Source: Candidatus Woesearchaeota archaeon (GTDB taxonomy: Archaea > Nanobdellota > Nanobdellia > UBA10117 > JABICX01). Taken from it: DNA of 64,000 bases. The DNA lies in assembly GCA_018652045.1 (NCBI GenBank), contig JABICX010000001.1, positions 5,107 to 69,106 of the forward strand, given 5' to 3'. The stretch's first letter is position 1, and every line of letters begins with the position of its first letter. The notes beneath the pieces were generated by a model. It did no database searches. It was not told the DNA's origin and saw only the letters and a program-made list of their open reading frames with translations. Positions 12,548-52,300 of this stretch are shown here, piece by piece. The position numbers and the translations under genes are program-made.

Positions 12548-15500
12548 GGTCTCTCAGTTTGCTTTCATTATAGCGTTTATCATAGTTCTTCTATCCTTAA
12601 CTACCCAAGTTGATTTAAGCGGAACAGTTACTGGAAAAACCACCGCCGGCGTAGCAGATGACTACGAGCACAGCCTAGAGATTACCGCAGACACAAGTTC
12701 TGAGATTATAACCCAAGAGATAGTCTTTGACCAATACAAACCCGACACCTGTGCAGAAGGAATAGCTATCTACACCGGATCTGGCGATGAGGTCTCATTT
12801 GAGACCTCTGATGACCAGTATAACGAGACATCTTGCCTTAGCACCATAATTTCATTTTCTAACAGTATCTACCACGAACCTGTTGAAGAAGAACCTTCTA
12901 CCGAACCAGAAGATCCTACCTATGCGATACCTGAACCTGAAGAACCTGTAGACGACCCTGCGCCAACCGAACCTGAAGAACCTGAATACTCAACACCTGA
13001 AACCCAACCTGAAGCATCTGAGGAAGCTGTAGCGGAAACAGGCGAGACTGAGTCAGAATCTGACCCACTGAGCGAACAAAGTTCGCGCGGCCTTTCTGAG
13101 CAAAGCTCAGATCGGGAATCCGAACCATCTGGAGACGATACCCAAACTCAGTCTGAGCCTGCCTCAGAACCAGTTCCTTCTGAAGAACCAACTCCCGAGT
13201 CAATACCTGAACCTGAATTTGGAATCACTGGAGCAGTTTCTGGAATGCCTGAAGGTGAGCAGACCATGACCTATTACATCTTCTATGGTAAGATCGTAGA
13301 AGCACCTGTTGAAGAACCAACTAACGAAACAGAAGAAGAGCCAAACGAGACTGTAGACGAACCCGTTAATGAGACTAACGAAACAATCAATGAAACAATC
13401 AATGAGACTGTTAATGAAACAATACAGCCAATAAATGCGACCATTAACGAGACAGTTGAACCAATATCAAATGTTACAGCCCGAGTTCGAACAATTCAGT
13501 CAAATGTAACGATTTTCCAGCCAGTTATTTGGCAACAATTTATTGAGCCTGACCAAGATACAGAAACTTTGGAATTTGAAGTTCCAGAGCCAGCAACCAA
13601 TATTAAAGTAACAAAAATCAAAGAAACTGGCGAAGAGCACATTATTCCAGATGAGCATTTAGAAGGTGTTGATTTAGAAGATTTAGATGAATTTACTATT
13701 GCAGCTAACCCTGTGGAAGGGGAACCAACACCCGAAGAAACAACACCCGAACATGTAAATGAAACAGTTGAACCTGAAGAGATAATAAATCCCGAATTCT
13801 CAATTACAGGTGCAGTAACCTCTGAAGCACTTCGAGAACAGGCAATTGCATTCTGGAACTTGTTCCTGAACTTATTTAGAGGAGGAATCACTGGATTTGT
13901 AGTATCTGAACCACAAACAGAACTACTTGAAGTTCCAAATAAAACAATCACAATTAATGAAAATATAACTCCGCAAGATGAAATTGTAATTGAATACGAA
14001 ACTCCTGCTCCAATCACAACTGAAGAACAAACCTCCTTTGGAAAAAGAGTAGTTGTTTCTTCAGATATCCACTATGAAAATGTTCTAACTTACACTAATA
14101 TTGAACAGCAGGTATCTGAATCAGCAATCAAGCTTTACTGGCTTAAAGAGACGCAAAGCTTTGATAATGAAACCAACGAAACAACAACATTTGTAGATCG
14201 AACCGATGTTACTAATGATCTTGAGATCGAGCTATGGAAGTTAGATACTGATGGAGATGGTAGGATAGACTACCTTGAATGGATTACCCCTCACCTTTCA
14301 AACGAGACTTTTGAAATTGAATTAACCATACTAACTGTTCAGAGCTACCCTGCATTACACGGTAACTGGACAGTTGATTTCAACACAACTGGAACCGCAA
14401 ATCTAACAATTCAGGCAACAAATGGAACAACTTGGAGTGATGAATATAATGAAAGTGTTGATTTAGAGTTCTTGAACCTAACCTGTGGAAATGAATCTGT
14501 GAACTACTCTTGGATTAATGATACTGTTTTTGTTGAAGATTATTCTTGTAATGAAACTGGTTTTGAGATTAGTAGCCCACACACGCACGGCGTACACACA
14601 ATAAGATTCCAATTTGGAGATCAAGTAGCATATGCATACAATAGTGTTACTTTAAATGAATTTAATTATCACTTTGATGGATCTCCACCGAATTCTGTAG
14701 ATAATGTACAGGATGTCTATCTATCAGGTGATTTGTTATATATAACTTCAACAGATGATGATGAAGTTTCCATACTTAATGTCTCAGACCCAACAAGCAT
14801 AGCTGCTTTAGATGGTTATGTTGATACAGCTTATTCATTTTCAGTAGAGCAGGTTCATGAGGTAATGGTCATCGGAGACTTACTTTATACAATTAGTGTT
14901 GCTGATGACAATTTTAATATACTTAATGTCTCAGACCCAACAGCAATATCTACCACTGGCGGTGGTTCTTATTTAGATAATAGTGCAGACGGTTCTATAG
15001 ATAATCCTTTGGGTATGGATATAGTAGGTGATTTAGCATATGTAACATCTGCTGCAGATGATTGTCTGACGATTATAAATGTTTCAAACCCTACTACAGT
15101 AGTTGGTGGAACGGGAGATATTGGTAGTCTTTGTGATAGTACTAACTTAAACACTGCCAATGAAGTAGTAGTCTCAGGAGATTACGCATATGTTGCTGCG
15201 GCTGGAGGAGGTTCCCAAGGTTTAGCTATTATAAATGTCTCAGACCCAACAAGTCCTACGCACGTCGCACAGTATACAAATGCAACAGAACCATTAAACA
15301 CGCACTCTCCGTATGCTCTGGATGTATATGGAGACTATGTTTTCTTAGGTGCATATAGTGATGGATTTAGTGGAATAGTTGTAATTGATGTTTCAGATCC
15401 AGAAAATCCAAATGCAGTAGCATCATATAAAGATGAGGATGGACCAGATTCAATCGATGGACCAATGGATGTTCAAGTATCTGGTCAAGGTAATTATCTG

Positions 15501-18500
15501 TATGTAGCAAGTTATCTAGACGCTTGTTTTACTATCCTTGATATATCTGACCCAGCAACACCAACTGCGGTAGCTAGTTACTGTAATACTACGACAATCG
15601 CTGGCGCGTATGATATAGCGATTTCAACAGATACTGAAACCGCATTTATCGCTGGCTCGACTGCGAGTTCAGGTGTAGTATCTTTTGTAAATATTACAGG
15701 TTATTCTGAAACAACTGCTGGGCCACCATCAATGTCTTCAGCAAGTATATTACCGGCAGTACCAAAAACATCAGATGATTTGCAAGGTTCCTGCCTAGCA
15801 ACAGATAATAATGATACAGTTACTTATTACTATGAATGGTTTAAAGATGATATATCAGATAGCAGTGGAAGTAGTGTAGGTCATGCTCCTGGAAGCGCAG
15901 TTAATTTAGATAACATAAGTGCTGCAAGTACTTCAGATAATGAAGAATGGATCTTTTCCTGTCTTGCTGATGATGGTGCAGATAATTCTAGCTGGATGAA
16001 TAGTAGCACTGCAACAGTGGGTAATATACCTCCAGGAGATTTTACCGCAGTTACATTAGCATCCTCTTCAGGCGCTAATTTATTTTCTGACAATCTTTCA
16101 GTTACATGGACAGAAAGCACCGATAATAATGGAGATACAGTCTATAACATCACTGACTGGAGATTAAACGGATCCTCAATAGCTGTCCTCAACATGCCAT
16201 TTGAATCCAACAGAAGCGGACAAGCTGGCGCAATAGTTAGAGATTATTCAACTCAAAACACAAATGGAACCTTTTCTGGATTTGATTGGGATGCAGATTC
16301 TGGTTGGCGAAATGACACGTGGTGCGCAGTTGGAGGCTGTTATGAATTTGACGGAACAGATAATTACATCTCTCTGCCAAACAACGCTTTTGATGAATAT
16401 ACACAGGGAACTATTCTTTTATGGGTATATCCAACAGACCTAAGTGCAACCGGATGCATGTATTCATATGGAGATGATTTTAATGATGCGAAATTTATTA
16501 ACTTTGCGAGTCAATCATCTGGAAAAGTTAGGTTAGCTTTGAGAGAGGACACAAGTGCAAATGACGTACTAATGGATAGTGATAATAATGTACTAAGCCA
16601 AGACATGTGGAATCACGTTGCAGTAACTAACAATGGAAGTACGTGGATTATGTACATAAATGGAACTGAAGTACCCTTCACGGTGACTGAAGAAGGAACT
16701 GCTACAGAGGGAATGTGGTTTGATGATATTGCTCCTTCTGCAGAACGTTCTTGCATAGGCGCACTATGTAGAGATGATGATAGAACTTTCTTTCAAGGAG
16801 GTGTGGACGAATTCCAGATATATAACCGTAGTCTTACTCCTGAACAAATAAGTGAAATATATCAAGCAGGTGTAGCGAATCACTCTATACAGAACCTCAA
16901 CGCTAATGAAACATCTGCAGATGATGCATGGACAGTTGCAGTTACTCCAAATGATTTGCTAGATGATGGATCAACAAATGTTTCAAATCAATTAGATATA
17001 CTCGCAGTTAATCTCTGTGCGCCAGCATCTGATGTAGAGCTAACCGCAAACAAAACTTGTGCGAGCTTGCATATCGAATCAGGCATTACTGTAAACACAT
17101 CAACTTTTGCATATTCAGTTACTGGCGATGTATTTATTAACGGAACATTAAACGCGAGTCAGGGTAAGAACCAGACTTTTAGATCGTTAGATATTAATTC
17201 AGGTGGAACCTATCACGAACCTGCAGATACCACAAAAATAACGTCTGAAAATAGTCTTGGATCTGCAGTAGATTGTGATGGTACGTATGTTGGTAACGGT
17301 GGATATTTGTTAATAAATACTAATCAGCTAGATACTAATATCGATCTAAAATGTGTGAGTGGAAGCGCGCACGACTTAGAAATTGATCTAACTAATACTG
17401 GTTATGATGCAACCGTTAGTGGTGCTGGTACTGGCGGACTGTATCTAACGGGAGATTTGATTATTGATGATGGTGAATTAGATACAGATAATCATATTGT
17501 AAATATAACGGGTGAACTATGGATACAGGCTGGCGGATATTTTGATACACGTGGAGATACAGTTGCACACGAATTTGGTGCAATAGATCTCGACAGTAGT
17601 GGTTATTTTTATGAAGGCGACGGAAAAATTATAATTGATTCAGAAGCCAGTTCTTACGCAATAGATTGCGATGGTTATTGGGTAGATGACGCCTCAACAA
17701 CGTCAATCGAGACTAATACCAATACCGCAATGGATATTTACTGTCAGACTACGGGTTATCGTCTGACTAACCTTGATATTAAACTCGGAAGTTCAGCCTA
17801 TGAGGTTACTACTACCACAACAATGTATATCGGTAAAACCTTGACCATAAAAGAAGGTGCTCTAGATACATCAGTTGGTTATTTTGGCACACATGAACCA
17901 ATAATTGTTATTGAAGATGGCGGGTTTTTGGATCTGGCTAGCAATAATAATGGTATAAATGTAGAGTCTGTTGATATTCAATCAGGTGGATCTTTTACAG
18001 GACCTAATAATATAATCTCAATAAATGCAAGTTCTGGAACCTGCTGGAATAATGCAGGTACATTTACAGCAGCGAGCGCGTCAACAGTTGAGTTTGATGG
18101 AGGTTGTACAGTAGTAACTGGTGGAACAGGGACTGGAAATGATTTTGCCAATGTTCAGTTTGATGGAGGAACAACAACTCTAAGCACAAATGGAATTGAT
18201 GTAGATGGATGGCTATTGTTAAATGGTGGATCATTTGATGCGAATGGCCAAGCAGTAACTGTTGTAGGAGATACCAATGTAACAAGTGGAACACTTACGG
18301 GTGGAGCTGGCGCAATGACCTTTGGGTCACTAACTATCGCTTCTGGCCAGACTTATTCAGCAACCAGCGGAACAACCACTATCACAAGCGAAGCAACTTC
18401 AGGATATGCGATTAGTCATTTGTCAGGTGGAACTTTGACAGCAAATTCAGGAATAATAAACGTAACAACTTCAGCAACAACTTCACTTGACTTTAGTGGA

Positions 18501-21500
18501 ACAGGAAATCCATATACTATAGAAGTTACTGGCGGAACAAAAGTCTGGCAACAAAATACTGCTCTCGATGGTAATCTAACAGTATCTTCTGGAACATTTA
18601 GAGCAAATAGTGCAGCTAAGACTTTAACTGTAACGGGTGATGTTGATGTCACTGGAACGCTAGGAGGTGGATCTCAAACTGCAGCAAACTCTTTCGGCTC
18701 ACTAACCATAAATTCTGGTGGAACCTATGAAGCTACAAGCGGAACAACCACAATCACTAGCAAGGCAAGTAATGATTATGCTTTAGATAACGATGGAACA
18801 CTTACACATAATTCAGGAACAGTTAATATAACTACGGGAGCTACAACATATATAGATGTAGTTGAGTCTGGTGGAGTGTATAATCTTGAAGTAGATAGTG
18901 GAAATATTGTTTCTTGTGTAAATAGTGCACCAACAATAGCAGGTAACTTAACTGTGTCTTCTGGAACATTTAAGATGGATAGTAGCAGTGCAAGCTTAAC
19001 TGCAACTGCGGATGTAGATGTTACTGGAACACTTGGCGATGGTTCTGACTCAGGTGCATTTACTTTCGGATCTCTAACTATCAACTCAGGCGGAACATAT
19101 TCAGCAACCAGCGGAACAACAACAATTACAGGAGAGGCGCCAAGTGGATTTGCTTTAGATAATGATGGAACTTTAACAGCAAATTCAGGATTAATTAATA
19201 TAACTACTACTGGAAGCACATTTATAGATATTCTTGGAACAGTAGCAGGAAATCCTTATGATTTAGAATATGATTCATCTGGAGGATATTTGACAATATC
19301 AGGTAATAATTCTGCTGTAGATAATAATTTAATAATAGATGCAGGACAATTCCGGCCAGGTAATAATGATGATTTTAATGCTACAGGTGATGTAACTGTT
19401 GCAGGTGGACAATTATATGATGGCGATGAGACAGGTACAGCTACATTTGGTTCCCTAACAATCAACTCAGGTGGGACATATGATGCTACAAGTGGAACAA
19501 CAACAATGAAGGGAGACTTTTCAAATGCAGGAATTTTCACGCATAATGATGGAACCGTTACAACAGCAGGAACAGATGTAAATATATCTGGAACTGTTGA
19601 CCCTGCGTTCTACGACTTAACAATTGGATCTGGAACTGCACACCTTAAGAGCAATATGACTGTAGAAAATGCACTAACTGTTTCAGGAAGCACAGAGGTT
19701 GACCTGTATGGCTATAATTATACCTTTGGAACTGCTTCGGCAGCTGGAACAATTGCAAACTCTGGAACTGTTGATGTTGGTACTACAAGTCAAGATATCC
19801 AGCTTTACGCAGCTAGTGAATCTTATTACTTTACTGTAACTGGCACAGATATTGACTGGAACGACAAATCTGGAACAAACTGGTATGTCAAATGGGTTGA
19901 CTATGACCCAAACGTAGATACTGGAACTGGAACCAACCTTAATCTTACATGGGATGGAGATGTTATCTTTGATGGCTTCACTATGCGAAATGGATTTACA
20001 TTAGATCCACAATCTTATGACTGGACAACTGCGTCGGACACATGGATAGATGGTAAGGTAGTTAGTGGATCTGGATACCATAACCTACACACATTAGTTA
20101 CTAGCACAAATGCAGATTATACTGCTACAAGCGGGCGGACTCGAGTCTATAATCGAATGAGTGGAAATGGAATCAACTTAGGAGCTAGTGGAACTTTCAA
20201 CCACAACAACGGTCACATGGAGGTAGCTGGCCAGTCAACGGCACAGGCAATCGTGGTTAGTAATGGCGCAACCTTCTATGACCTGAATATATCAAATACT
20301 GCTGGAAGCTATGTCTATCTAAAGTCGAATATTGTGGTTGATAAGGATATGTGGGTAGAATCAGATACTTTTGATTCTATTGGCTATAATGTAGGTGTCT
20401 CTGGAGGCGTCTATGTAACTGGTGGCGAATGGAATGCTTCAACTGGAACAAACACTGTTGGAAATTTAACTATTTCATCAGGTGCATCTGTAAACGCTAC
20501 ATCTGGTGTCTTGACGATCAATGGCTCGCTATTCAACAACGCAGGAAGTTTCTATCCAGATAGTGGAACTGTTGCGTTCAATGGCGCATCTACAACCATC
20601 ATGGGAAACACGGGCTTTTCTGAGCTGCGTATCTCTGGAAATGTAACAGATGATGGCGATTCTAATTACACTGTAATGAATGTCACATCTGTTGGTAATT
20701 TTACGTATAATACCAGTAACTATGACTACAATGTAACCTACTATAAAGCAACGGGCGGATATGTAGGTATTGCATCTAGTTCAACTCTTACATCTAATAC
20801 TACCTATTGGAATGGAACTGCAGATGGAAACAAGCTAACTGCTAATACAACGGGAGCAGCTTACTTTGTAGATGTTATTGAAGCAGGTTCTAACTGGTGG
20901 GTTGGTGGCTGGAACAGTGCACCAACAATGACTAGTGCAGATATCCAACCAGATCCAGCATATACAACCAGCGCGTTACTTGGATATTGTAGAGCAGATG
21001 ATTCAGAGAGTGATAATGTAACTTTCCACTACCAGTGGTACAATAACAGTGTTTCAGTTGAGACGGGATATAATTCAACATCTCTACTGCAGGGAGTGGA
21101 GTATGTTATCCACGCTCTGACTAGTGGAAATATCTCAAAAGGTGAAAACTGGACTTTTGCATGTATTGCACAAGATGATTTAGCTAATGCTTCAGCGTGG
21201 ATAAATGATTCAGTTTTAATCTCAAACACAGTTCCAACAGCTTTCACCTCAGTTGTATTGGCTGCAACAAATACCTCTCTAAACAACACCAATCAGAACC
21301 TGACCGTTACCTGGACCGATGGTTCAGACTCAGACTCAGACGCAATATACAACATCACCGACTGGAGACTTAACAGCACATCCATAGCAGTTCTAAACAT
21401 GCCATTTGATTCCAATAGATCAGGCCAGTCTGGCTCGATTGTCCGAGACTATTCAACTAATACAAATAATGGAACTTTAGAAGGAAATCCGCAAGGGGTC

Positions 21501-42500: not shown

Positions 42501-43073
42501 TATACAGTACTTAACGGAACAACCAATGTATCTACATATGAACTTGAGGTAACAACCTCTGCAGGTAATACGGTTGGTTGGTACTTCTGGACCAATGATA
42601 CACAGGGTAACACAAACCAGACTGATCTACAGACATTCACTATCGGCAACAAGTCCATCGCAATAGCAGTTTCTGACCTTCTAGATGCAGGGGTACGGTG
42701 GGTAATTCAGAGTCTTCCATCAACTAGAGCGAACGCGTCATATAACAACGGAACATCTGACACGAGCTATTATGTAACCGTTACTTCAGTTGGCACAAAT
42801 GTAGACCTATCTATTGCAGCAGATGGCAACCTGACAACATCTGGCGGATCAGTTCTGGACATCAGTAACGAAGAGTTCAGATACAATACTTCTGAAACAG
42901 ATGTAACTAATAGCGACTATTACACCATGGCTACAACCAACAACACAATTGGTTCTAACATTGTCAACGGTACAACTTCCTACATGAAGTTCTACCTAAC
43001 GGTTCCAGGTAACCAAACTGTCGGAATTTACAATAACACATTATCTGTCTATGCAGAGGAGAGTTCACTATAA
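12537..43073 (+). CDS. Giant 10,178-aa secreted/surface adhesin-like protein
   Basis: Uninterrupted 30.5-kb ORF. N-terminal hydrophobic segment; acidic E/P-rich linkers; LVIVD-type propeller repeats (~14700-15700). Six LamG/ConA-like domains (~16190, 21390, 23620, 30380, 40350, 41260; WxHV..LYxDG..DExxIYNRxL). About 30 FGSLTINSGGTYxATSGTTTI repeats, Ig-like domains, and a C-terminal pilin/WxL-like domain. No C-terminal TM. Confidence 0.92.
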   Translation: MQSKVSQFAFIIAFIIVLLSLTTQVDLSGTVTGKTTAGVADDYEHSLEITADTSSEIITQEIVFDQYKPDTCAEGIAIYTGSGDEVSFETSDDQYNETSCLSTIISFSNSIYHEPVEEEPSTEPEDPTYAIPEPEEPVDDPAPTEPEEPEYSTPETQPEASEEAVAETGETESESDPLSEQSSRGLSEQSSDRESEPSGDDTQTQSEPASEPVPSEEPTPESIPEPEFGITGAVSGMPEGEQTMTYYIFYGKIVEAPVEEPTNETEEEPNETVDEPVNETNETINETINETVNETIQPINATINETVEPISNVTARVRTIQSNVTIFQPVIWQQFIEPDQDTETLEFEVPEPATNIKVTKIKETGEEHIIPDEHLEGVDLEDLDEFTIAANPVEGEPTPEETTPEHVNETVEPEEIINPEFSITGAVTSEALREQAIAFWNLFLNLFRGGITGFVVSEPQTELLEVPNKTITINENITPQDEIVIEYETPAPITTEEQTSFGKRVVVSSDIHYENVLTYTNIEQQVSESAIKLYWLKETQSFDNETNETTTFVDRTDVTNDLEIELWKLDTDGDGRIDYLEWITPHLSNETFEIELTILTVQSYPALHGNWTVDFNTTGTANLTIQATNGTTWSDEYNESVDLEFLNLTCGNESVNYSWINDTVFVEDYSCNETGFEISSPHTHGVHTIRFQFGDQVAYAYNSVTLNEFNYHFDGSPPNSVDNVQDVYLSGDLLYITSTDDDEVSILNVSDPTSIAALDGYVDTAYSFSVEQVHEVMVIGDLLYTISVADDNFNILNVSDPTAISTTGGGSYLDNSADGSIDNPLGMDIVGDLAYVTSAADDCLTIINVSNPTTVVGGTGDIGSLCDSTNLNTANEVVVSGDYAYVAAAGGGSQGLAIINVSDPTSPTHVAQYTNATEPLNTHSPYALDVYGDYVFLGAYSDGFSGIVVIDVSDPENPNAVASYKDEDGPDSIDGPMDVQVSGQGNYLYVASYLDACFTILDISDPATPTAVASYCNTTTIAGAYDIAISTDTETAFIAGSTASSGVVSFVNITGYSETTAGPPSMSSASILPAVPKTSDDLQGSCLATDNNDTVTYYYEWFKDDISDSSGSSVGHAPGSAVNLDNISAASTSDNEEWIFSCLADDGADNSSWMNSSTATVGNIPPGDFTAVTLASSSGANLFSDNLSVTWTESTDNNGDTVYNITDWRLNGSSIAVLNMPFESNRSGQAGAIVRDYSTQNTNGTFSGFDWDADSGWRNDTWCAVGGCYEFDGTDNYISLPNNAFDEYTQGTILLWVYPTDLSATGCMYSYGDDFNDAKFINFASQSSGKVRLALREDTSANDVLMDSDNNVLSQDMWNHVAVTNNGSTWIMYINGTEVPFTVTEEGTATEGMWFDDIAPSAERSCIGALCRDDDRTFFQGGVDEFQIYNRSLTPEQISEIYQAGVANHSIQNLNANETSADDAWTVAVTPNDLLDDGSTNVSNQLDILAVNLCAPASDVELTANKTCASLHIESGITVNTSTFAYSVTGDVFINGTLNASQGKNQTFRSLDINSGGTYHEPADTTKITSENSLGSAVDCDGTYVGNGGYLLINTNQLDTNIDLKCVSGSAHDLEIDLTNTGYDATVSGAGTGGLYLTGDLIIDDGELDTDNHIVNITGELWIQAGGYFDTRGDTVAHEFGAIDLDSSGYFYEGDGKIIIDSEASSYAIDCDGYWVDDASTTSIETNTNTAMDIYCQTTGYRLTNLDIKLGSSAYEVTTTTTMYIGKTLTIKEGALDTSVGYFGTHEPIIVIEDGGFLDLASNNNGINVESVDIQSGGSFTGPNNIISINASSGTCWNNAGTFTAASASTVEFDGGCTVVTGGTGTGNDFANVQFDGGTTTLSTNGIDVDGWLLLNGGSFDANGQAVTVVGDTNVTSGTLTGGAGAMTFGSLTIASGQTYSATSGTTTITSEATSGYAISHLSGGTLTANSGIINVTTSATTSLDFSGTGNPYTIEVTGGTKVWQQNTALDGNLTVSSGTFRANSAAKTLTVTGDVDVTGTLGGGSQTAANSFGSLTINSGGTYEATSGTTTITSKASNDYALDNDGTLTHNSGTVNITTGATTYIDVVESGGVYNLEVDSGNIVSCVNSAPTIAGNLTVSSGTFKMDSSSASLTATADVDVTGTLGDGSDSGAFTFGSLTINSGGTYSATSGTTTITGEAPSGFALDNDGTLTANSGLINITTTGSTFIDILGTVAGNPYDLEYDSSGGYLTISGNNSAVDNNLIIDAGQFRPGNNDDFNATGDVTVAGGQLYDGDETGTATFGSLTINSGGTYDATSGTTTMKGDFSNAGIFTHNDGTVTTAGTDVNISGTVDPAFYDLTIGSGTAHLKSNMTVENALTVSGSTEVDLYGYNYTFGTASAAGTIANSGTVDVGTTSQDIQLYAASESYYFTVTGTDIDWNDKSGTNWYVKWVDYDPNVDTGTGTNLNLTWDGDVIFDGFTMRNGFTLDPQSYDWTTASDTWIDGKVVSGSGYHNLHTLVTSTNADYTATSGRTRVYNRMSGNGINLGASGTFNHNNGHMEVAGQSTAQAIVVSNGATFYDLNISNTAGSYVYLKSNIVVDKDMWVESDTFDSIGYNVGVSGGVYVTGGEWNASTGTNTVGNLTISSGASVNATSGVLTINGSLFNNAGSFYPDSGTVAFNGASTTIMGNTGFSELRISGNVTDDGDSNYTVMNVTSVGNFTYNTSNYDYNVTYYKATGGYVGIASSSTLTSNTTYWNGTADGNKLTANTTGAAYFVDVIEAGSNWWVGGWNSAPTMTSADIQPDPAYTTSALLGYCRADDSESDNVTFHYQWYNNSVSVETGYNSTSLLQGVEYVIHALTSGNISKGENWTFACIAQDDLANASAWINDSVLISNTVPTAFTSVVLAATNTSLNNTNQNLTVTWTDGSDSDSDAIYNITDWRLNSTSIAVLNMPFDSNRSGQSGSIVRDYSTNTNNGTLEGNPQGVTVGRIGGAYAFDGSGDYINLGATNALIGNNNQNITVSLWVNTTDTVAKYAFSLKRQSGANSTLLSVCSNYGSVGTLGFLTREYDDSGHDYMTYDGDYNDGSWHHVVAIVDGLNRYLYIDNVLRGSDALGMQDVTSNTDEATIGGFGASTTSLDFTGHLDDVKVFNRSLTPEQIDQIYNAGLAGHSVQNMSFNETVVNDTWTVAVTPNDLESDGTTTTSNSVTIINNAPSISTVDLTPDSPTTDDHLTCTVTGGADVDGDSLTYTYDWYEDQVFNQSYVQSGASYVLNRSNISAGEVWNCTVTPWDGIENGTAITDSVTVAQGCIVDSVTGNITLTSNLACSTLDIYAGYVLDTSTYTLTATGATEINGTIDASSSTAVSFAAVTIQSGGTYTATSATTTVTGDAANSGTFTHNNGLLYRTDPSGEWNGFTGTNAFYNFQNEGGYTMDGNVMQIINQLSGSETFNVYYNGKLILGNESQSGTVDMTADTDLTTNLKYSNTIMAASELYPAIIKNAYVNTLSGSGTLTLNNTDWQLAFTTGGYGTGTVKLDGDAKFDAFTITAGDTLDLNGQRVEFDGAITNSGSIDLDGALVYVNSGNPNWDGASGVTGQSTSDIVFTGTFSAMPDDSHRTIFVNTAGTVTLNTDYFFNYGQVIVGAGELDTGSDRKIGSVSSPVDNLTIATGGTLDAHASNIVVDQNWKATGGLIGKSALDLDGSSEGVNVTDDESLDITTAITVEAWIKTDDVENNNGMIVCNQNQPIANAGYFIYARGVDDTFNFAAYTSSEVGDAKYTVDSSVNSRWVHLVGTYDGSNIRLYMDGKLVNETALTGTINISSSNLGIGYRDEGSSLNFDGAIGKVSIWNGTLTQSEIRSNMFADCAGNSNQSTLVSCYQFDEGTGTSVADSIGSNTGTASGSGVWAGTPTFSYDTSTVNLTGTGSLMVADSPSARDFYNLEVAQSGKTTTISPIGSGVNHDIYGKFTAGAGTLSVSNNGRLVIGGSDAPVDEGATFSAFQYVTYNTGTANITGSTYAGLYSYTENRYLLGNVSVAGATGAMTAGKAILSNGYNITTEDITATGELNLSAGSVLIFEDTAGAAVSGSGGVYAEGAAGNLVGVHSAGTEHWDFNETAFNTTWNYANVSYGNNTGTATIIVYNGNDYGNNMPAGMWVFSTATPDNCLFGGDATLTANLTCGNLGISAGAVVTDAYSINATGDAEINGTLNASTGGPQWFGSMIINSGGTYEATAGTTEINSETGSGIAFRVNSGGTFTHSNGLVNFTGPETWFYLISGSSGNFYDLEVASGNKLSCGSNMIMSNDFIISSGEYECAAITTVTGDTNITGTVDINSGYAFTTGSLTINSGGTYQATSGTTTITSESSAGYSIYSKTGSTFTSNSGLVNVTYNGVSNIGIGDNATKLHDLHIQSSTKYFNGQSNSHVKLSGDLIVYGGTVRSGSSSGEILVSGDVNVTGGTLGWSGASGANTFGSLTINSGATYYATSGTTEITSENTGGYAYDNDGTFTNNSGTVRFSTAAPTLIDTSGTVGSFYDLILNHASLDLIQDTALVVGNDLTVTAGNMNTSDNNYALTVTGDADVTGTLTGQASAVSLGSLTINSGGTYDATSGVTTITSEAGSGYDLDLNSGSTFTHNDGTINITYTTGYASLDLSSTGDFYNLVFAIGAQRNSIITYAGGTMTVANDLTIESGIFDINNRAFDVTRDVSVTGTLDSDYLSTGTQDISYGSLTINSGGVHRATSGTTTINSSFSRVGTLTHNSGTIAFNNDTVAQITGDTTFYNLNTNAAVFNSSDDNITIASGGTLTQGGNITANILDIRGTMAIGAGEEITFEDTVGSGFAGTGTLTIAGSSGDLVNITSAGTTAWRMPHPTLNSTWNYAAVSYGNNTGADTIVVYDGTDEGSNGPLGMWVFDSNACIFAGNVTLTANLTCSSFQIESGAEVSTDTYSVNATGAAYLNGTLNASQAGDQWFGSMRVNSGGVYSATSGTTTITSEDASYALYCAGVFTHNNGNVTYASTIPDTWIWPQCSSGTFNNIVFSTADDIVYWASGETISGNVTVNDGNIAIGADPVGLIITGDVVINGGVLNNLGGTNTGDWSFGSLKINTGGEYNATSGTTTITKRTVGGYNFQVNGGTFTHNSGTVNISAGDYFTVTPSTFYNLGILANTDWAGNVAVANDLTVSATSLGTYGGSGDLTVTGDVTVANSGTLDGGAEALSFGSLTINSGGTYEATSGTTLLHGEGKASETVIWALNSGGTFNHNQGTVEFSHKTQYSRALMGTLEPTFYNLRMSGNDYGWSILMVRKDITVINELSGDVQNNLFTMYGNDLVFTLGNASQAANVSTLTLNGQTYNNGYWYGASADYPAVFTNNNLRFIQGNSANTQYAQTYIKWLDFQETVTSSNTDNGIVTLTGPVTFDAYTLASGDTFELNGQEATISGNLASSGTFTGAEGNLSLSGTGQTMSGVIDNITQINVSSTVDLTVQSGTNVSFADIVGAGFAGTGNLTISGSDGNLARITSGGTTNWVVPHPTLNTSWNYVNVSYGNNTGTDVIIVNNGTDYGNNVPVGMWVFNSPTSPANCTFAATTTLTANLTCNNLYVESGVTLSTDTYSINATGDASFNGTVNASAGGDQWFGKTNINDGGGMYHATSAFTSINGYFTIDGDFLHNDGTMLFTSSMMYIYPNSSTFYNITQTNTVYVGEPLTVIHMYNQSSGQLRLTNGMGTLTLGNDTQAGTLFGASGASTIQPYSTTIQAANQLYPGVITDNGNLWWGQAGTKTFKWLNFTSALQVDDGGGIGIQLTGDCSFAAVSISSGETFDLNGQRVEFGGELDILSGGDLGQAGAQIVMTGAARPDYDGTITGKADIIYDSTASPDIDGGGTYSFGTIFTRETSTLAIYPGTTIDQFIVGSGTFSTNDLQLDASNLTIANGGTLSGGASAINVAENWKSSSGPIGRYALDLDGSTEYVNTAQDIDMFYFMDEENRTQEAWFKVNSTGQHVVMAYQPVDANFGGVPRGGLYANSNYLYLEWYGTEDGDSLAYHSISTPIEIDQWYHAVSVHEDSKYYFYLDGKLVNISGTTTHGNYADANTDIVYIGVTSDGNAKFFDGHIGRVSIWNVSLQADDIRASMFQPCTTLSNQSELVSCWQFDEGTGTTVADSIGSNTGTASASTVWAAGGTFTEGTSTVNMTGTGSVIVDDDQDFYNIEVANSGQTTTITCPENGYGEADVYGKLSSGAGTLSKVSMASWEILGSDAPTDGTSANNIFETSRIIYNGAANVTGSGYYYLIVNSADAYLLGNVTVTAGDDYTGIGAGDSLSSNGYNMSVDRLRINGNLNLTAGSVLTFDDATGFETSDGTFNVVGASGNLATIESASATAWEFNATAVTSTWNYANVSYGNNTGTDVIFVNNGTDYGNNVPVGMWVFNSPTSPANCTFAANTTLTANLTCNNLGVETGVALVTSTYSVNTTGWAELNGTLNATSGTGQQFNSMTIRAAGAYEAPSSAVTNITTTTNIYGDFLLESGNLSTGSALTTAYAITLYSGGRFDGSTGYHETGSISCPSGSTCDLTSGTTNFVTRRGSYNSYFIYCADDDSSINHNNGTVNITLGTTSYMLYNTDELTLYNVETDGGLYDGTGSGYKLNVEGNLTLGSSYTFYNNGIINVTGDVIQNAGTFGKSGVRTFNQDVYFGSLTINSGTYSATSGTTTITSKNSGSGWTIDNDGTFTANSGTVNITYGSAACEFDILGTGALYNLELNCGGNIAKSYGATTTIDNDLTINNALFRTDNNRAVTVTGDVVVNNGGTLGNAETAAWSLGSLTINSGGTYSATSGATTITNYFSNAGTYTHNSGDIVFSNDTLAQFTGDATFYNLTTNAAVFNSSDDNITIATGGTLTQQGNITANILDIRGEMSIGAGEKVTFDDTTGSGFSGTGNLTIAGSDGNLANITNAGTTEWTMPHPTLNSTWDYVAVSYGNNTGTEAIIVYEGADEGNNVDDGEWIFSFAAAPANCSFAANTTLTANLTCSKLDVLAAATVVTDTYSINATSDAEVNGTLNASQGGDQWFGSLDINSGGTYYATNGTTTITSEEGSHYAFYNNGGTLTHNSGIFNFTQTASEGAYSQIYDNGAGDLNNLVVGTTGSNQLRQIGALTIEGNLTSEASSEYAFGGSSTRHLTVNQNVVIDGDVNGGSNGASGTFGSLTINSGGTYSATSGTTSIDGDLDNNAGSSGYVHNDGTLSFVNGGGYLYGGEGVFNDITYSGGVNYVDFSENLTIINSTNLYARFGRDTEQIITLGNSTQSATIGGAGYSAMFGTYDATFQANSSAYPTDWSQTFYFGTGEIISLKWINFTQDIATGGDGENISITGDSWFQNLSVTGNDVLNITDSSTLYTDVLDLNGTLTSGSGNITNNNNAQWLAHFDLADNYTWDSTNISEGNNTGAVVINAQSATDGGNNVPDGMWLFGGAGVSCLFSGNTTLTANLSCSTLGVESAATVATSTYSINATSDAEVNGTLNASAGGSQWFGSMTLQSGGTYEANIGNTTINNAPNGDYAFYGYSGSTLTHNDGTFVFSSGENSFVRTEGNGVFYNIIVDKSGYKLNTPHVGDLTVESNLTVTAGEIDRVTADKIINVTGDVDITGTIDLSGESGGAYFGSLTIQSGGTYDATSGTTTITSENTGSGFAFNDLGTFTHNNGILNITTSAFTEFRGTAYDLIVSTGSFLVYRSITIADNNVTIDSGTLRSNNYGNDLTVTGDVLIRGGTLGLSIPESGDWSFGSLTINSGGTFEATNGTTTITNESAGGYAINHDGTLNNNTGIFNITTVDATLLDLTGTGNLNDLVMNTSSIASIVDTTTIDGNLNISSGTFQSNNDNRALTITGDVIINGGQLDSGSEAGARSFGSLTINSGGTYDATSGTTTISGDFDNDGTFTHNDGILEFSNFTGNDQRLGGGTFYDIVVSGSGSSWVELYAETSATILNSLNHTSGEDLYLRNTFTFGNTTQAATINMDGEGSGDRVSSSTSCKIYGASESYPVVITGARDFMYWDNINFKWVDFQINTSTDDRSKTITLDGTSWFRDITVDTTDIFDTGTSTLYMNNLTLVGNLTSGAGNITNNTNAQWLAHFDNADTYTWSSTNISQGNNTGSLVINAQSATDGGNNVPDGMWLFGGEGVACLFSANDTLTANLTCASLQVEAAATLVTGEYSINATGDAEVNGTLDASSGGNQWFDSLTIQATGTYTATSENTTISGVGVSSYNAVLYVGGTFDNNTGTFVFNHQDSGSYRSNLGYEESNGGQLHNVIVDTNGIQSFEANTVITGNLTVDAGTAQTNNAAWTWDITGDVVVNSGGTLGAASRSADYSFGSLTINSGGTYSATNGTTTITDENPSGYAFVNDGTFTHNSGTVTITTDANTYLDLTGSGNVYNLITNRSGRAYDWTIAATIDNDLTVTAGTLRASGVGDNLIVTGDVDITGILSDNARGVVMTFGSLTINSGGTYSATSGTTTITSEADSGYGWDNDGTFTANSGTVNFTYGTGTLLDAVGTSGTFYNLIFSGTSTTLMTDLDVEGNLTENSVGALITNANNKYINVTENVVIGGQIGDATETADWTFGSLTINSGGVYSATSGITEINNTALNTYALNNDGTLTANGGTINITSQTASQYYLDIATGSGNPYNFVVDIGGGNSLKWIFDGGVIDGNLTVQSGTFNSNADLYDLTVTGDTVVSGTLSNGGSDAMTFGSLAIKSGGTYSATSGTTTINSEDGSNHALDCDGTFTANSGNVSIETGASTIVDILCTGSLYDLDIDNTGVATYWEHDAATIANDLVITAGSFRAGTTTHDITVTGDVLVQNTGTLGIATESGARSFGSLTINSGGTYVATSGTTTLTSESGSGRVIDVDTAATYTHNNGELAITTNTATAFVSYENIFNNITINNAGSYTQMVGNVTVADTLTVNSGKDLYVGSGQDNILIIGNSTQSGSIVSTGDFIVNAYTGYTQVIKGASSAYPLVATGTNWNWDQQAPGNTLNLSNIDYQINGSTGGDGILIQLVGDTWFRNMTVSSGDALSITGSATLYTDVLDLSGNLTSGTGNITNNTNSQWLAQFDSANTYAWDSTNISKGNNTGASVINALTATDGGNNVPAAMWKFTGGTVTLDNPNTSWTVGANATFDCSATNTDVALANISLYHNNTGTFHNNGTVSVSGTSASAQFNVSTLQENGFEWYCEACDAVSCVVSSDNRTVTADTTTPTISYLADVWVDATRIGTWRDVVVNLTSSDTNNQSTFLDWNKTLVGYWSMDAVSGSTVLDNSTWQNNGTLEGGATPTQGKFGKGMKFNGDDEVIRMGEITSGHPLMLANSNITISAWFKQYSGDTYQRIVDKSTAGNSANGYGLAAHTNRDIYLLVDGSYYRTDTSAYNFGEWTHVVGVVTEDTFEIYIDGVNQTGGSWSGSAKLPPDATANLSIGSWNHADAREVNGSIDEVQIYSRALSANEIRALYDANANQYNKTWTGLTEGQSYTYTGYSVDLGANKNETAERTVTINNIPTTFTSVAMASSTAANITSDNLSVSWTDGTDGDSDTIYNITDWRVNGSSIAVLNLAFDSNRSGTTTAVIRDYSTFENNATLGNTTTGRAPAWTSSCQIGGCYEFTAAGEEKINISNTVLTGLSTVTTELWIKTSGSAQGVITGANPTYNNEYLIYDQSSLRLYVHDSNWNSGVSINNNAWRHVVFTWDGSNGTVKLFVDGVFQNSGTVNTGALTIPVNGLWLGAEQDSVGGGFQASQELVGFLDEVRIYNRSLSADQIWANYVAGNASLSVQTMVSDETGKNDVWSVSVTPNDLYEDGPNTTSDSLTLVSTAPNPPTSITPASGTWGGDNSSMELNCSGASDNDSDTITYSIESNRTGSWTEVTTGLADGNYSWDISSYDNIVGINFRCWATDGALNSSKYTASASVNLDNWGPRWSSPSKNASTVYNGLNISLNTTWTETQAADVGLAGFIFSSNDSGSWTNGSYTVLNGTTNVSTYELEVTTSAGNTVGWYFWTNDTQGNTNQTDLQTFTIGNKSIAIAVSDLLDAGVRWVIQSLPSTRANASYNNGTSDTSYYVTVTSVGTNVDLSIAADGNLTTSGGSVLDISNEEFRYNTSETDVTNSDYYTMATTNNTIGSNIVNGTTSYMKFYLTVPGNQTVGIYNNTLSVYAEESSL
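29151..29274 (+). repeat. 124-bp near-identical internal duplication, copy 1 (module junction)
   Basis: Matches 31701-31824 with 2 mismatches (ATCATA vs ATCTTC). Confidence 0.9.
31701..31824 (+). repeat. 124-bp near-identical internal duplication, copy 2
   Basis: Matches 29151-29274, offset 2550 nt. Confidence 0.9.
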
Positions 43074-43327
43074 TGGCAACAAAGCAAGCAGCACATAAGA
43101 GAACATTCAGAGAGATCAGAAAGTCTCTCCTACTGAACCTTACACAGGGTCAGAAGAATGTCAATCAGTTAGCTGATGCTGCCCATGTTAACTGGCACAC
43201 AACACGTAGACAGATGATCTACTTAATCGGGTTTGGATATGCTCGCTACGTTGTCAACTATCCACAAGTAAAGATCTTTGAAATCACTGAAAAGGGGATG
43301 GATGCTCTAGATCATAAAAAGGTATAA
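43073..43327 (+). CDS. Winged helix-turn-helix (ArsR-like) regulator, paralog 2
   Basis: 33/68 identities by hand to 12272..12547 (VNWxTTR, PQVxIFEIT); TAATG stop/start overlap with the giant gene. Confidence 0.85.
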   Translation: MATKQAAHKRTFREIRKSLLLNLTQGQKNVNQLADAAHVNWHTTRRQMIYLIGFGYARYVVNYPQVKIFEITEKGMDALDHKKV

Positions 43328-43350
43328 TAAGTTTGAAAATGGAATATACT

Positions 43351-43914: not shown

Positions 43915-43998
43915 TTTTCCCTTTTACCCCCTCAAAATGGTGAAAATATGGGCTAAAAAGAGGCATTTTTAGGCATTTTTAAGGCTATAGTGGAAAGA

Positions 43999-44071
43999 TT
44001 TTAATACTACTGTTAATGTAGTTAACACATACATGGTTAAAACTACGTTAAATATGTTAATGTAGTTAACA
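43999..44071 (+). promoter_or_regulatory. BRE/TATA followed by two identical 17-bp operator-like sites
   Basis: GGAAAGA-TTTTAATA (TATA 43999-44006). TGTTAATGTAGTTAACA at 44011-44027 and 44055-44071, 44 bp apart, with form TGTTAA-N5-TTAACA. Inverted core AACTACGTTA at 44041. Confidence 0.75.
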
Positions 44072-44886
44072 TGTCTTTGGGGCAAAAAGTGGCTGACCAG
44101 CCGAAGAAGTTAGTAGGCATAGGTATAGGTAGATATACTCTAATTAGCTATAGCCCCAAACTATCTAGTTCTGAGCTAGTAAAGTTCCATTATGCGCTTT
44201 TAGGTAGAGGCAAACAACCTGGCCTTCTTCGAAAAACGCATAGCATAAAGCTAGCTAATTCTGTTATTCTTGCCCCCAAGGCATATAGTAAAGAAGTTCT
44301 TGACTTCTTGAGAACTTGGAAATGTAACATTTCCACGAAGGAAATCATAAACAAGGTTTCCGATGAGAAAAAGTTGCAACAGGCTGCTAAGAAGCTTGTA
44401 GCTAAGCGACGAGACATATCAGATGTCCTACTTGTGGACGCCAGCCTGATCTCAAAAAAGGCTAAATCTAGCCCAGTTGTCTGCCTTCTAACTCACTCAA
44501 AAACACCACAACGAATCGCACAAAACCTGCAAAGCGAGATTGGCCTACCCGTTATCTTTGTACAAGCAGATCAGTTATTCACCCCTAAATATTCTTCCAT
44601 TGTTGATGCCTTAAAACAAGGTACGAGCCTCATTACATCAAAGACTTTTGCCCCAAAGACTTTGTTTGTCTATTCGACAAAGCACATAAAAGGCTCAGAT
44701 AAAGTCCGCTTCTTTTACGATCTAAAAGGACGCGGCAAACAAAAGGGTATCATAGAGAGCACTCGTAGCGAGTTCTTTGCTAAGTCAGTGATTATCGCAC
44801 CTAGCAAGAGCGTCGAAGCTATGCAGAAGTTCTTGACCAAGTGGAAGTGTCAGTACGAAAAAATGGAGGTAGCTGAAAGTGTCTAG
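44071..44886 (+). CDS. Basic cytoplasmic protein: two Cas2/ferredoxin-like domains flanking a degenerate minimal nucleotidyltransferase-like domain
   Basis: Internal duplication YTLISYS..VKFHYALLGRGKQPGLL..KLANSVILAP..FLRTWKC versus TLFVYS..VRFFYDLKGRGKQKGII..FAKSVIIAP..FLTKWKC. Middle segment ISDVLLVDAS..LKQGTSL lacks GS/DxD. Confidence 0.6.
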   Translation: MSLGQKVADQPKKLVGIGIGRYTLISYSPKLSSSELVKFHYALLGRGKQPGLLRKTHSIKLANSVILAPKAYSKEVLDFLRTWKCNISTKEIINKVSDEKKLQQAAKKLVAKRRDISDVLLVDASLISKKAKSSPVVCLLTHSKTPQRIAQNLQSEIGLPVIFVQADQLFTPKYSSIVDALKQGTSLITSKTFAPKTLFVYSTKHIKGSDKVRFFYDLKGRGKQKGIIESTRSEFFAKSVIIAPSKSVEAMQKFLTKWKCQYEKMEVAESV

Positions 44887-49396: not shown

Positions 49397-52300
49397 AAAA
49401 GAGATTCAACGGCAGTATAATAAAGAACTTGTATCTGTTATGATCTTTACTACACTTATTCTACTAGCCTTTGTCTTTGGAAGCTTATATTATTACACCT
49501 GTAGTCTACCTGAGGGATGCTTGTATAATACACATTTTACTATTTTCTTCGCAATATTGTTTGTTTTACTTTTAGTTATGATACGTATAGAGAAACATAA
49601 ACTTAAGCATCATATACTACGTATTCATGAAAAGATAAAGAGAAAGAACGTCTTGCCACCAAAGCCACTTGATTCAATTGATTCTAAGTTGAAAGGGATT
49701 GAGAAGAACCTACGCAAGACTGCACTACCGACGTTAATCAGTGATTTTTCTAACGTCTTTAAGGAACTAACTGTACGGTTGTTGGGTATAAAAGGTAACT
49801 TTACTTACGAAGAGTTACTTGTGCGCCTGGAAAAATCACACTTACAAGAGAAATTACGTTTAGATTTGATTAAGACTGCAGAGTTTTTGCAATTAGTGCA
49901 GTACAAAGACAAAAAGTTATCTCTTAGCGAGTTACGTGAGTTAGTTAGATACACACGTAATCTTGTACGAATACATAATTTTTATCCACCTAAACCTAAA
50001 ACACCAAAATACGAGAATTTAAAACCAAAACTACCTTCACCTAAGCACGCGCATTACATCGCACTCTTCATAGTGTTGTTTATTGCAGTAGGTGCATATG
50101 TATCGGGATCTATGCAAGGTATAACTGGATTTTCTACTTACCAAGTAACTGAAGGTACGGGTGGATCAGTTACGGTATTTACCATTGCGGATCAGACTGT
50201 TGTAGAGGGACATAACCTATCTATAATTGTATATGCTAACGACTCAGATTCTGAAGCAATAACTTTTGACATTGGAGATAGCGATCCTTCCTGGGTAAAT
50301 ATTACAACAATTAGTAGTTCAACTGCAGGTGGCGCAAACGCAACAGGAAACCTAACCTTTACACCCGCTTCAACGGGAGATACAGGAGATAATTACAATG
50401 TAACTATAATTGCGCGTTCAGTTGATAATGACGCAGCTTCGGAGGGAATAAATGTTAATGTTACTGAGAACACCGCTCCAACAGCAAACGTAACGATTCC
50501 TAACATGACTTGGCCAGAAGATACAGTAAACAATAGTTATGATCTGGATGATTACTTTAATGATACTGAAAATGATACGTTGAGTTATACGTATTCAGGT
50601 AATACGAACATAGCAATATCAATTGCAAGTGGTGTTGCAACACTCACTCCTACGTCAAACTGGAATGGGACTGAAACGATAACCTTCACTGCTTCAGATG
50701 GTATTGATACAACCAATTCTAACGCAGTTTTGATGAATGTAACTGGTGTATATGATCAGGCAGAGATGTCTGGCTTTGCAGTCTTGCCGAGTTCACCACA
50801 TAACTTGAGTAATCTGACTTGTAGTTGGACTGTGGCGAGTAATGATACCACTGCGAACATAACCGCAAATGTTTCGTGGTATATTCTTAATACTTCCTGG
50901 CAACTTGAGATGCAGCAGAATAATGTTACCTGTTCCGCAAATGGTGTGTGTAATGCTTCAGAATTAATATTCTATACCAATACAAGTATAGATGATGTTT
51001 GGAATTGTACTGCTAACATATCTGATCAATCAAATTATACTTTCTTTTCAGCTAATAACACGATCGTTAGCGCAGCACCGACCATACTTACAGTAACTAC
51101 GAACTCTAATGATTATAATCGTACTCCGATAAATTCTAGCGCAATATTTAACGTGACGTGGTCGGATGTAGATACGTTGAACATAAGTACGCATATATGT
51201 AGCACCTCTTCAGGTAATACGAGCGGTTGTAATGGAACTGAATTATGTGGTGTAAACAGCACAAATGCTACGATTATTTCATGTAACTATACTGTTTTAG
51301 CTACTGATGTTGTGAACACATCGGTGTGGGTTTTTGCATGCGACGATACTACTTGTTCTAATACTACAACTACTTTTTATGTTAATCAGATACCTGCAAT
51401 GAATGAAGTAACTAGCACGTTTAACTATCTTAGTGGCACCGGTATAACTTTTGGTAATGGTGAGTTTGACGCACCACCTGTTTTAAATCAACAAGCAATG
51501 TTTAAACTCAATAGCTCTGCTTTGTATACATTAGATAAGATAAATGTGTCTAACGCTACGTTCTACATAAGTATAACTGAACTGTTGGGTAACTGGACAG
51601 GAGGCATAACTGTATTGAGCATTACAAATCAATCTTGGTTAACAAACGATAGTATTGCTGCACTAACTTCCCTGACAGGTACTGAATCTAACTTTACAGA
51701 GATTAACACAACTGCGGTTCGAGGTATGAATGTATCTGATTTAGTTACTGCTGCATACGCGAGTAATCTGATAAATATTTCACTTAAGATATCTGCAACA
51801 CAGGGAAGTGGTACGCTTAACGATTCAGAGATACCAACTACTTACTTTTCAGTTGGAGATAATGACACCGGCAGTACGCTTGGTGGTATGACCTTTAGCA
51901 CAACTACGAACATAACCGCAAATCTGACAAAGTTGATTCCAGATTATAACTGGAACATGAATGTTGTACAAAGTGGACCTGATTTAGATAGTTACTTTTA
52001 TGATCCAGATGGTTACGATCTGAATTTTAGTACAAGTGGATCATCGTATGTAACTGTAGCCATCGCCAATGACACACACATCGCTACATTCACACCTACC
52101 TCTGGTTGGTATGGTACTGAGACAATAAACTTCATAGCAACTGATGCTGCTAATGAGACAATGTATAGTAATCTTGTGAGTCTGACCGTAAACTATGTCG
52201 CAGGAGATACAGTTACAACTACAACTACATCTAGTTCCAGTTCGACAAAAGTTAAACGAATGTCTATAGAACTAACCGCAAATGATATTGAGTTGTATCC

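Follow-up and report, generated by a model that had tools for sequence, protein, structure and literature searches.

What does a four-residue motif signify when it recurs a few residues behind the membrane segments of several proteins of one gene cluster? The question is raised by a 64,000-nucleotide stretch of the genome of a Candidatus Woesearchaeota archaeon (contig JABICX010000001.1; G000:C12:5107-69106, hereafter the window), in which an original prediction, made from the letters alone, had listed eight copies of the motif [IVL]TG[AFYK]. Every one of these copies was found in place, and it is confirmed that the recurrence of the motif after membrane segments exceeds chance. We propose, at about even confidence, that the motif may mark the junction in a class of Sec-type signal or anchor sequences specific to one lineage, the DPANN archaea of the Nanoarchaeota/Woesearchaeota type, and that this junction box is cut by the housekeeping signal peptidase I.

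The genome, G000, comprises 685 kb in 25 contigs (C) with 39% G+C and is 88.5% complete. Motif counts were made over the whole genome in 783 non-overlapping open reading frames (ORFs; 213,924 amino acids, aa) obtained by crude longest-ORF calling, and transmembrane (TM) segments were marked by a Kyte-Doolittle window, so that the enrichment counts are approximate. Proteins of the window are named by the first nucleotide of their ORFs (Table 1). The presence or absence of the 46087 family and the number of peptidases were scored in 41 related genomes, and 301 genomes served as a class-wide sample.

Recurrence of the motif behind membrane segments

A genome-wide scan of the kind proposed in the original prediction found the pattern given there, [IVL]TG[AFYK], enriched after TM segments over background, with seven of 70 copies in post-TM intervals against 0.65 expected (p 4.5e-6). 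For ITGF, five of the ten copies in the genome fall in the 18-residue intervals that follow the sole TM segment of 114 single-TM proteins, where 0.09 would be expected (binomial p 1.7e-8). The corresponding count for [IVL]TG[FY] is six of 23 against 0.22, and the bare [IVL]TG is weakly enriched (nine of 289 against 2.7). When the search was made without a preset motif, ITGF ranked first among the 1618 4-mers that occur in post-TM intervals. In a permutation control over 318 intervals, ITGF scored six of ten and the remaining 23 orders of I, T, G and F scored 0 or 1 each; for the class motif the result was seven of 23, against at most two for the other 23 orders. The six post-TM copies of ITGF are in C2:38782, C4:676, C4:20520, C23:70365, C12:49985 (the 44879 protein) and C12:54474 (the 49368 protein), and the other four lie in a polytopic protein, inside the giant protein of the window, near a C-terminal TM segment (C9:895) and in a cytoplasmic-looking ORF. 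The N-terminal copies stand 2-7 residues downstream of the hydrophobic segment, which agrees with the short spacer noted previously.

In the stretches of related genomes that bear the cluster, post-TM copies account for four of six occurrences of [IVLFM]TG[FY] in G002, which is of the same genus, and two of five in G005; in G012, eight of 29 copies of a broader pattern are post-TM against 0.66 expected, and in the class-level outgroup G039 three of nine, all of these being small samples from relatives that are not independent. G010, of the same order, has no post-TM motif in the 400,000 of its 919,475 bases that were sampled, and a search with the 46087 protein gave no match there either. Therefore, the signal appears not to be universal within the order.

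Homologues of the 46087 protein occur in 15 of the 41 related genomes and, by profile, in 153 of the 301 class genomes, often as tandem paralogues. A profile search of 1.84 billion representatives returned 2870 matches at E <=0.001 and 692 at E <=1e-30, and a protein atlas assigns the family to Nanobdellota/Woesearchaeota. In an alignment of 21 members (23-60% identity), hydrophobic-[T/S]-G follows directly after the TM segment in 17, the four deviants having ITA, LTS, LLG or none. A MAFFT alignment of 150 sequences, namely P0001 and 149 of the 150 best profile matches (one 1066-aa sequence was excluded), has the motif Gly in 148 sequences and the Thr in 126, with Ala two residues further on in 106 and Val in 21. 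The Gly column carries 4.26 bits and is tied third to sixth among 201 columns, level with two conserved Cys and the N-x-G of the fold. The family consensus reads hydrophobic-T-G-[Y/F/R/L/A/H]-A-T-[D/S]-T-G-T-[A/V]-N-[L/V]-T-[V/I], the tail of which contains an N-x-T/S sequon for N-glycosylation. In the family of the 44879 protein (alignment A3, 13 sequences), the motif Gly and Ala are invariant (13/13) and Thr is present in at least 90%. Overall, these alignments show that the motif is conserved by selection and is not an accident of paralogy.

The motif also goes with the membrane segment and not with the domain behind it. It stands ahead of a Cys-rich protein of 163 aa, the family of the first domain of the giant, and a Big_9/cadherin-like protein of 1174 aa, and in a CopC-domain protein each of the three orthologues from the genus keeps it as ITGF. 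In P0163 (1066 aa), the N-terminal end comprises a cytoplasmic coiled coil, a TM segment and FTGNA, and the 46087-like domain lies at the C-terminal end with no motif ahead of it. The motif thus behaves as a portable signal tied to a TM segment, in line with the possible processing or sorting signal first suggested.

Some of these carriers have features of their own. The CopC-domain (copper-binding) protein (C4:20520-21149, L113), in which a basic N-region of 30 residues precedes the TM segment and ITGF, is found only in the genus among the 41 relatives. A 114-aa protein (C9:895-1239, L117) has a canonical signal VSYA↓I (the arrow marks the predicted cut), Asp-rich DTDGDG/DTDEDG repeats, ENQ-ITGFS, a C-terminal TM segment and a KKRK tail, and its motif copy, 13 residues before the TM segment, is the only one that precedes a C-terminal anchor. 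A second, paralogous cluster at C23:67511-77803 (L118) encodes a 1353-aa protein, a small AxA protein with a C-terminal TM segment, a protein with the order coiled coil, TM segment and ITGFA, a 234-aa pilin-like protein with the variant GITSW, and a 365-aa three-domain partner.

In the giant, the N-terminal copy is followed by three internal ones. The orthologue of the giant in G002 has VTGF at the N-terminal position, and homologues of the first domain have ITGF (G033) and FTGY (G013) after the TM segment; the G-K-T of the giant itself would be a poor small-x-small site. Its first 460 residues hold four copies of the motif against 0.14 expected (a post hoc count), and all three internal copies are retained in G002. 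Since a module from about residue 442 aligns with the N-termini of large proteins in relatives, which have a TM segment and the motif-like VQGF, IQSF or IVGF, the third internal copy probably represents a former N-terminus that has become buried. The other two, both PEF-x-ITGAV, resemble the products of an internal duplication.

The pilin-like fold and its partner gene

AlphaFold2, run with a 21-row alignment, models the 46087 protein as a confident beta-sandwich (predicted local distance difference test, pLDDT, 82.6), with a TM helix at residues 20-40 and the first strand at residues 56-65. Residues 41-55, which lie between the two and contain LTGY, are predicted to be disordered (pLDDT <50). 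All five Foldseek matches of this model below E 0.001 are forms of FimA, mostly self-complemented (template modelling scores 0.32-0.46; best E 9e-5). Of the 50 rows of a VIA search, about 22 are subunits of donor-strand fibres as judged by title, with values of 6.6 for TLP-1b, 6.3 for Csu, 6.0 for cannulae, 5.5 for Saci_0406, 5.5 for AbpA and 5.2 for TasA; CS17, FimA, PapA, CfaB and EcpA are further donor-strand titles among these rows. Since the fold alignments begin at residue 65-66, the strand 56-65 would be left as a spare strand. On the basis of the model, the 46087 family looks like a subunit of a donor-strand fibre. Its sequences have no match in Pfam, NCBIfam or the PDB sequences (A1 profile, 0 PDB matches). 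The analogy with TasA and its peptidase SipW, drawn in the original prediction, therefore seems apt in so far as the family is predicted to fold like donor-strand subunits and has a conserved strand a few residues past the motif; the dedicated peptidase that formed its other half is unsupported.

The TM helix of the family is itself conserved in the 150-sequence alignment (residues 20-34 of the 46087 protein). It has [I/V]-S-N-[K/N]-[T/L]-L-A at its start, and a Ser near its middle in 104 of the 150 members, which is unusual for a disposable signal peptide.

The 46087 gene and the 46777 gene form a pair (window 46087-47898) that returns in other genomes (loci L002-L009 and L101-L111). Homologues of the 46777 protein adjoin a pilin-like gene in seven of nine loci of relatives and in nine of 11 class-level loci, the latter as judged by eye. 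One member of the pair is a pilin-like protein of about 200 aa with a TM segment and T-G-x-A, often present as 2-10 tandem paralogues, and the other, a partner of 370-400 aa, has three beta-sandwich domains between a signal peptide that ends in ...A↓[I/L]G[I/L]SP and a C-terminal TM segment. Neither family has a Pfam model. The 46777 protein was also considered as a PapD-like chaperone, an assignment that we do not claim, its fold matches being only to generic immunoglobulin (Ig), CARDB, GH2-linker, macroglobulin and RbmA domains.

Candidate processing and its alternatives

A proposed course of events can be described as follows. The hydrophobic helix that precedes the box would insert with its C-side out, so that the box comes to lie a few residues outside the membrane, behind a Gly/Pro-rich spacer. 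The single archaeal-type (SipW/Sec11-like) signal peptidase I would then cut, either after the Ala of G-x-A, which is favoured, or after the Gly of hydrophobic-T-G, and the ectodomain would be released. In the 46087 family, the cut would free the conserved N-terminal strand G-T-[A/V]-N-[L/V]-T-[V/I], with its sequon, as the donor strand through which subunits may polymerise into a TasA/AbpA/thread-like fibre, and the neighbouring three-domain, C-terminally anchored protein could serve as a helper or an anchor. A fibre that leaves the cell would require a cut between the TM segment and the donor strand.

The G-x-A register is favoured by P0003 and P0064, in which the same D-T-G-T segment directly follows, in register, the end of an ordinary short signal (V-M-A↓L and V-I-A↓V, respectively). 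The motif-bearing proteins had been thought to have no clear AxA site; however, the motif itself holds a small-x-small site (G-F-A, G-Y-S, G-F-S), which takes the form G-x-A in 106 of the 148 aligned members (111 if G-x-S is counted as well), with hydrophobic-T-G in most. The AxA sites reported for the 43333 and 46777 proteins were seen as well, as ASA and AEA.

A single archaeal-type signal peptidase I is encoded in G000 (C2:7710-8282); it matches TIGR02228 at 47 bits (E 1e-12) and contains an SGSM box. There is also one gene for an A24 prepilin peptidase, an enzyme that acts on another kind of signal. No match to a bacterial-type S26 peptidase, a rhomboid, an exosortase (PF09721) or a sortase (PF04203) was found in this 88.5%-complete genome. 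Among the genomes that bear the 46087 family, 13 of 15 have one S26-type match and two of 15 have two, and two matches are also present in four of the 26 genomes without the family. The signal peptidase I gene lies on another contig than the cluster in G000 (C2 versus C12), about 32 kb away in G005 and about 4 kb away in G002. Since the S26 copy number does not track the family, gene content lends no support to a dedicated paralogue, and with a single signal peptidase I and no rhomboid, exosortase or sortase the dedicated peptidase of the original prediction is not borne out. In G002, the peptidase gene (C13:59236-59805) is close to the cluster (63426-71727); because the two are near each other there and on different contigs in G000, the genus has a rearrangement at this locus.

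Several known kinds of signal were compared with the motif and rejected. A class III (type IV pilin) signal has a [K/R]-[G/A] cut site ahead of the hydrophobic helix; by eye, S-N-[K/N/E]-[T/L] precedes the helix here, with no G/A at -1, and true class III signals exist elsewhere in G000 (KKGITP, KKGQ). An LPXTG signal or an archaeosortase PGF/PEF-CTERM signal was rejected because the motif follows an N-terminal TM segment in all cases but that of C9:895 and PF04203 and PF09721 gave no match in the 88.5%-complete G000, and self-cutting of the SEA/GAIN type because the motif lies in the low-confidence linker and not inside the fold. TIGR04088, the model of the SipW-cognate signal peptides of TasA and TapA, matched none of 12 window proteins (E <=0.1) and none of 21 family members (E <=10, although HMMER filters drop most weak matches), and TasA/camelysin (PF12389) matched 0 of 21 family members at E <=5.

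A number of observations weigh against a cut by signal peptidase I. The conservation of Thr and Gly is far above the known need of this enzyme. In the G-x-A register, Val would stand at -1 in 21 of 148 aligned members, and in the T-G register 23 of the 128 scored motif matches would have Phe at -3; the classical rule disfavours both residues at these positions. The TM segment as defined by the Kyte-Doolittle window averages 23 residues in the family, the gap from its end to the motif varies from -3 to 14 residues, and the cut would fall on average about 8-10 residues beyond the hydrophobic segment, which is longer than typical c-regions. The n-regions are strongly basic in the 46087 protein and the CopC protein and often non-basic in the family, the net charge before the TM segment being negative in 45 of 125 members. 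Uncharged runs of 15-20 residues in seven motif proteins do not separate from those of 79 other N-terminal signals (median 18). Cytoplasmic domains of 100-250 residues precede the TM segment in the 44879 family, the 49368 protein, P0163 and L057, which is unusual for a removable signal. Finally, no TM segment precedes the three internal copies of the giant, which G002 retains, or one copy in L057, and the ITGF of C9:895 stands before a C-terminal TM segment.

Some of the same features would fit uncut type II (N-in, C-out) anchored surface proteins, in which the box is a juxtamembrane stalk element, such as a site at which the co-encoded Ig-like anchored proteins or a modifying enzyme could dock, or a turn by which the ectodomain is positioned on the membrane. 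We consider this rather unlikely. The TM helix is conserved beyond hydrophobicity, in the Ser of 104 of 150 members and in Asn/Asp at its start, as in retained helices, and conserved cytoplasmic coiled coils before the TM segment in whole families suggest that the inside and outside parts act as one protein. The variable spacing, a T-G conservation beyond the need of a lax peptidase and the position of ITGF in C9:895 point in the same direction. However, a fibre built by N-terminal strand donation could not, we infer, extend from the cell if each subunit were still anchored in the membrane at a distance of some 15 residues from its donor strand; CopC domains are normally soluble and exported, P0003 and P0064 have cleavable-looking signals at the same place, and the motif lies in a linker without predicted contact to the domain. 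A dedicated protease or transpeptidase, along the lines of the original prediction, which would recognise the T-G box and couple cutting to fibre assembly or surface attachment, could account for the near-invariant T-G, reminiscent of the T-G bond that is cut in LPXTG, for a Pro that is often found 2-4 residues upstream (QVPITG, ELPQITG, RIPLITG), and for copies that misfit signal peptidase I, namely those without a TM segment in the giant and L057 and the one before the C-terminal TM segment and KKRK tail of C9:895. The gene content set out above makes it improbable: no sortase, exosortase/archaeosortase or rhomboid is matched in the 88.5%-complete G000, a second S26-type copy is present with and without the family, the peptidase gene is unlinked to the cluster in G000 and G005 and about 4 kb from it in G002, and no enzyme-like protein was recognised in the cluster, although an enzyme of an unknown family would escape such a search.

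It is also conceivable that the motif has no function of its own and was spread by shared descent of N-terminal modules, through duplication and fusion, together with composition. Paralogy does span the TM segment, the motif and the first strands (C23:69425 versus C23:70365, E 4e-5; 49368 versus C23:70365), the giant has its apparent internal duplication, and its internal copies are conserved within the genus only, as far as shown. This explanation is nevertheless very improbable, since the motif is kept while the remainder diverges to about 25-35% identity, its Gly (148 of 150) is at the level of core fold residues, it precedes unrelated ectodomains, and it is absent from the sampled 400 kb of G010, which also gave no 46087 match. 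Returning to the junction box, a wider and, as a whole, doubtful scheme would join several of these elements. The T-G-x-A box may be a new N-terminal sorting signal for an usher-less, donor-strand pilus and adhesin system in half of the sampled DPANN genomes of the Nanoarchaeota class, in which the co-encoded Ig-like proteins with their C-terminal anchors would couple the cut to an exchange of strands at the membrane. The coiled-coil versions would stay uncut as membrane anchors that connect the cell interior with the fibre and with giant adhesins, of which the 10178-aa protein is an example, and the whole would form an attachment apparatus on hosts.

The gene cluster and its parallels in known systems

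Table 1. Motif carriers and associated proteins of the cluster, in window coordinates; all lie on the + strand.
Feature	Position	Strand	Motif copy	Layout
Giant surface protein, 10178 aa	12537..43073	+	VTGKT, aa 31-35 (nucleotides (nt) 12627-12641); degenerate motif VTGK, nt 12627-12638	N-terminal TM, then degenerate motif
Giant, internal copy 1	nt 13224-13238	+	PEFG-ITGAV, aa 230-234	Acidic N-region
Giant, internal copy 2	nt 13803-13817	+	PEFS-ITGAV, aa 423-427	Acidic N-region
Giant, internal copy 3	nt 13887-13901	+	GG-ITGFV, aa 451-455	Behind degenerate hydrophobic stretch AFWNLFLNLF
43333 protein, 193 aa	43333..43914	+		Canonical ASA signal site, C-terminal TM; contrast class in same cluster
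44879 protein, 288 aa	44879..45745	+	ITGFA, aa 124-128 (nt 45248-45262)	Cytoplasmic coiled-coil region of ~100 aa, TM, motif, beta-rich ectodomain
46087 pilin-like protein, 211 aa	46087..46722	+	LTGYS, aa 46-50 (nt 46222-46236), within low-confidence linker	Basic N-end, TM (helix 20-40), motif, first strand 56-65, beta-sandwich
46777 partner, 373 aa	46777..47898	+		Canonical signal peptide AEA↓IG, three beta-sandwich domains, C-terminal TM, basic tail
48536 protein, 286 aa	48536..49396	+	LTSYM (degenerate), aa 41-45 (48656-48670)	N- and C-terminal TM
49368 adhesin-like protein, 1174 aa	49368..52892	+	ITGFS, aa 252-256 (nt 50121-50135)	Two TMs, cytoplasmic loop of ~150 aa, third TM, motif, Big_9/cadherin-like repeats

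The LTSYM of the 48536 protein lies 10 residues past the TM segment and is weak as a member of the motif. The 44879 protein has a paralogue at C23:70365, the 43333 protein has one of identical layout in the second cluster at C23:71858, and the G002 orthologue of the 49368 protein also has ITGFS after a TM segment. The ORFs of the 48536 and 49368 proteins overlap by 29 bases, and the two proteins have a repeated domain in common (43% identity over 101 aa; second match 35%). Upstream of the 44879 gene, window positions 44071-44886 encode a basic protein of 271 aa, with no TM segment and no family match, which apparently contains, by eye only, two copies of a module of about 90 aa (...F-Y-x-L-x-G-R-G-K-Q-x-G...K-W-K-C); in G001 (L003), the protein is likewise encoded upstream of the 44879 homologue. 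The giant gene is bracketed by genes for two small paralogous winged-helix proteins (window 12272-12547 and 43073-43327; HTH_5/HTH_45, with weak Sso10a-like matches), each of which overlaps or abuts the start or stop of its neighbour, and the two proteins are possible regulators of the cluster. Searches of the cluster proteins against Pfam and NCBIfam gave nothing informative besides the winged helix-turn-helix, CARDB (weak) and Big_9.

DPANN archaea live attached to other cells, and very little is known of how they build their surface. The motif picks out a coherent group of exported proteins, among them the 10178-aa adhesin, and brings to light a very large family without annotation (2870 cluster representatives, 153 of 301 class genomes) that has a conserved partner gene. 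If the box serves in processing, it would provide a simple sequence rule by which exported and assembled proteins of these organisms can be predicted, a testable substrate of signal peptidase and a candidate attachment organelle. If it stays uncut, it would define a kind of juxtamembrane element that is new for anchored proteins of archaea.

Conserved boxes where the signal peptide joins a fibre subunit are already known; this particular box, its portability and the family that carries it are undescribed, and a search of the literature, supplements excepted, turned up no paper that deals with this motif or with a comparable TasA- or pilus-like family in DPANN. The SipW-cognate box is of the G-T-aromatic-A-x-F-S-D type. 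In contrast, the box here is hydrophobic-T-G-aromatic-A, neither TIGR04088 nor PF12389 matches it (0/21), and no dedicated peptidase gene was found; the signal is also present behind long cytoplasmic domains and on non-pilin proteins.

According to the portions of the papers available to us, signal peptidase I processes the subunits of threads, AbpA and TLP-1 (environmental fibrils), and conserved residues follow the cleavage site (PMC9715654, PMC9245690, PMC11494351). In the Saci_0406 threads of Sulfolobus acidocaldarius, as far as these portions describe them, conservation follows the cut (Asp, YYY), whereas it is strongest here in T-G, at or before the putative cut; the threads also differ in that no isopeptide evidence exists for the present family (PMC9715654). 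The layout of a pilin-like gene with a partner gene parallels abpA-abpB of Pyrobaculum calidifontis as presented in the accessible text (PMC9245690). No sequence similarity to AbpA or AbpB was detected, however, and judged by the same text the DPANN partner differs in its C-terminal TM segment, the signal is a T-G-x-A box here and A-x-A there, and the organisms belong to DPANN and Thermoproteales, respectively (PMC9245690).

The Pam pili of bacteria of the candidate phyla radiation, described in a preprint of which a part was accessible (PMC13278184), belong to bacteria; their helpers are PapD/FimC-like by fold, whereas the 46777 protein matches only generic Ig, CARDB and macroglobulin folds, and the accessible part mentions no T-G box in the signals that it describes. 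In other respects the two systems are alike in that same part of the preprint: in each, an ultrasmall episymbiont has an operon of Ig-like pilins with Sec signals and donor strands, both of these being predicted in the archaeal case, and no usher, and the helper proteins are held in the membrane by a C-terminal TM helix (PMC13278184).

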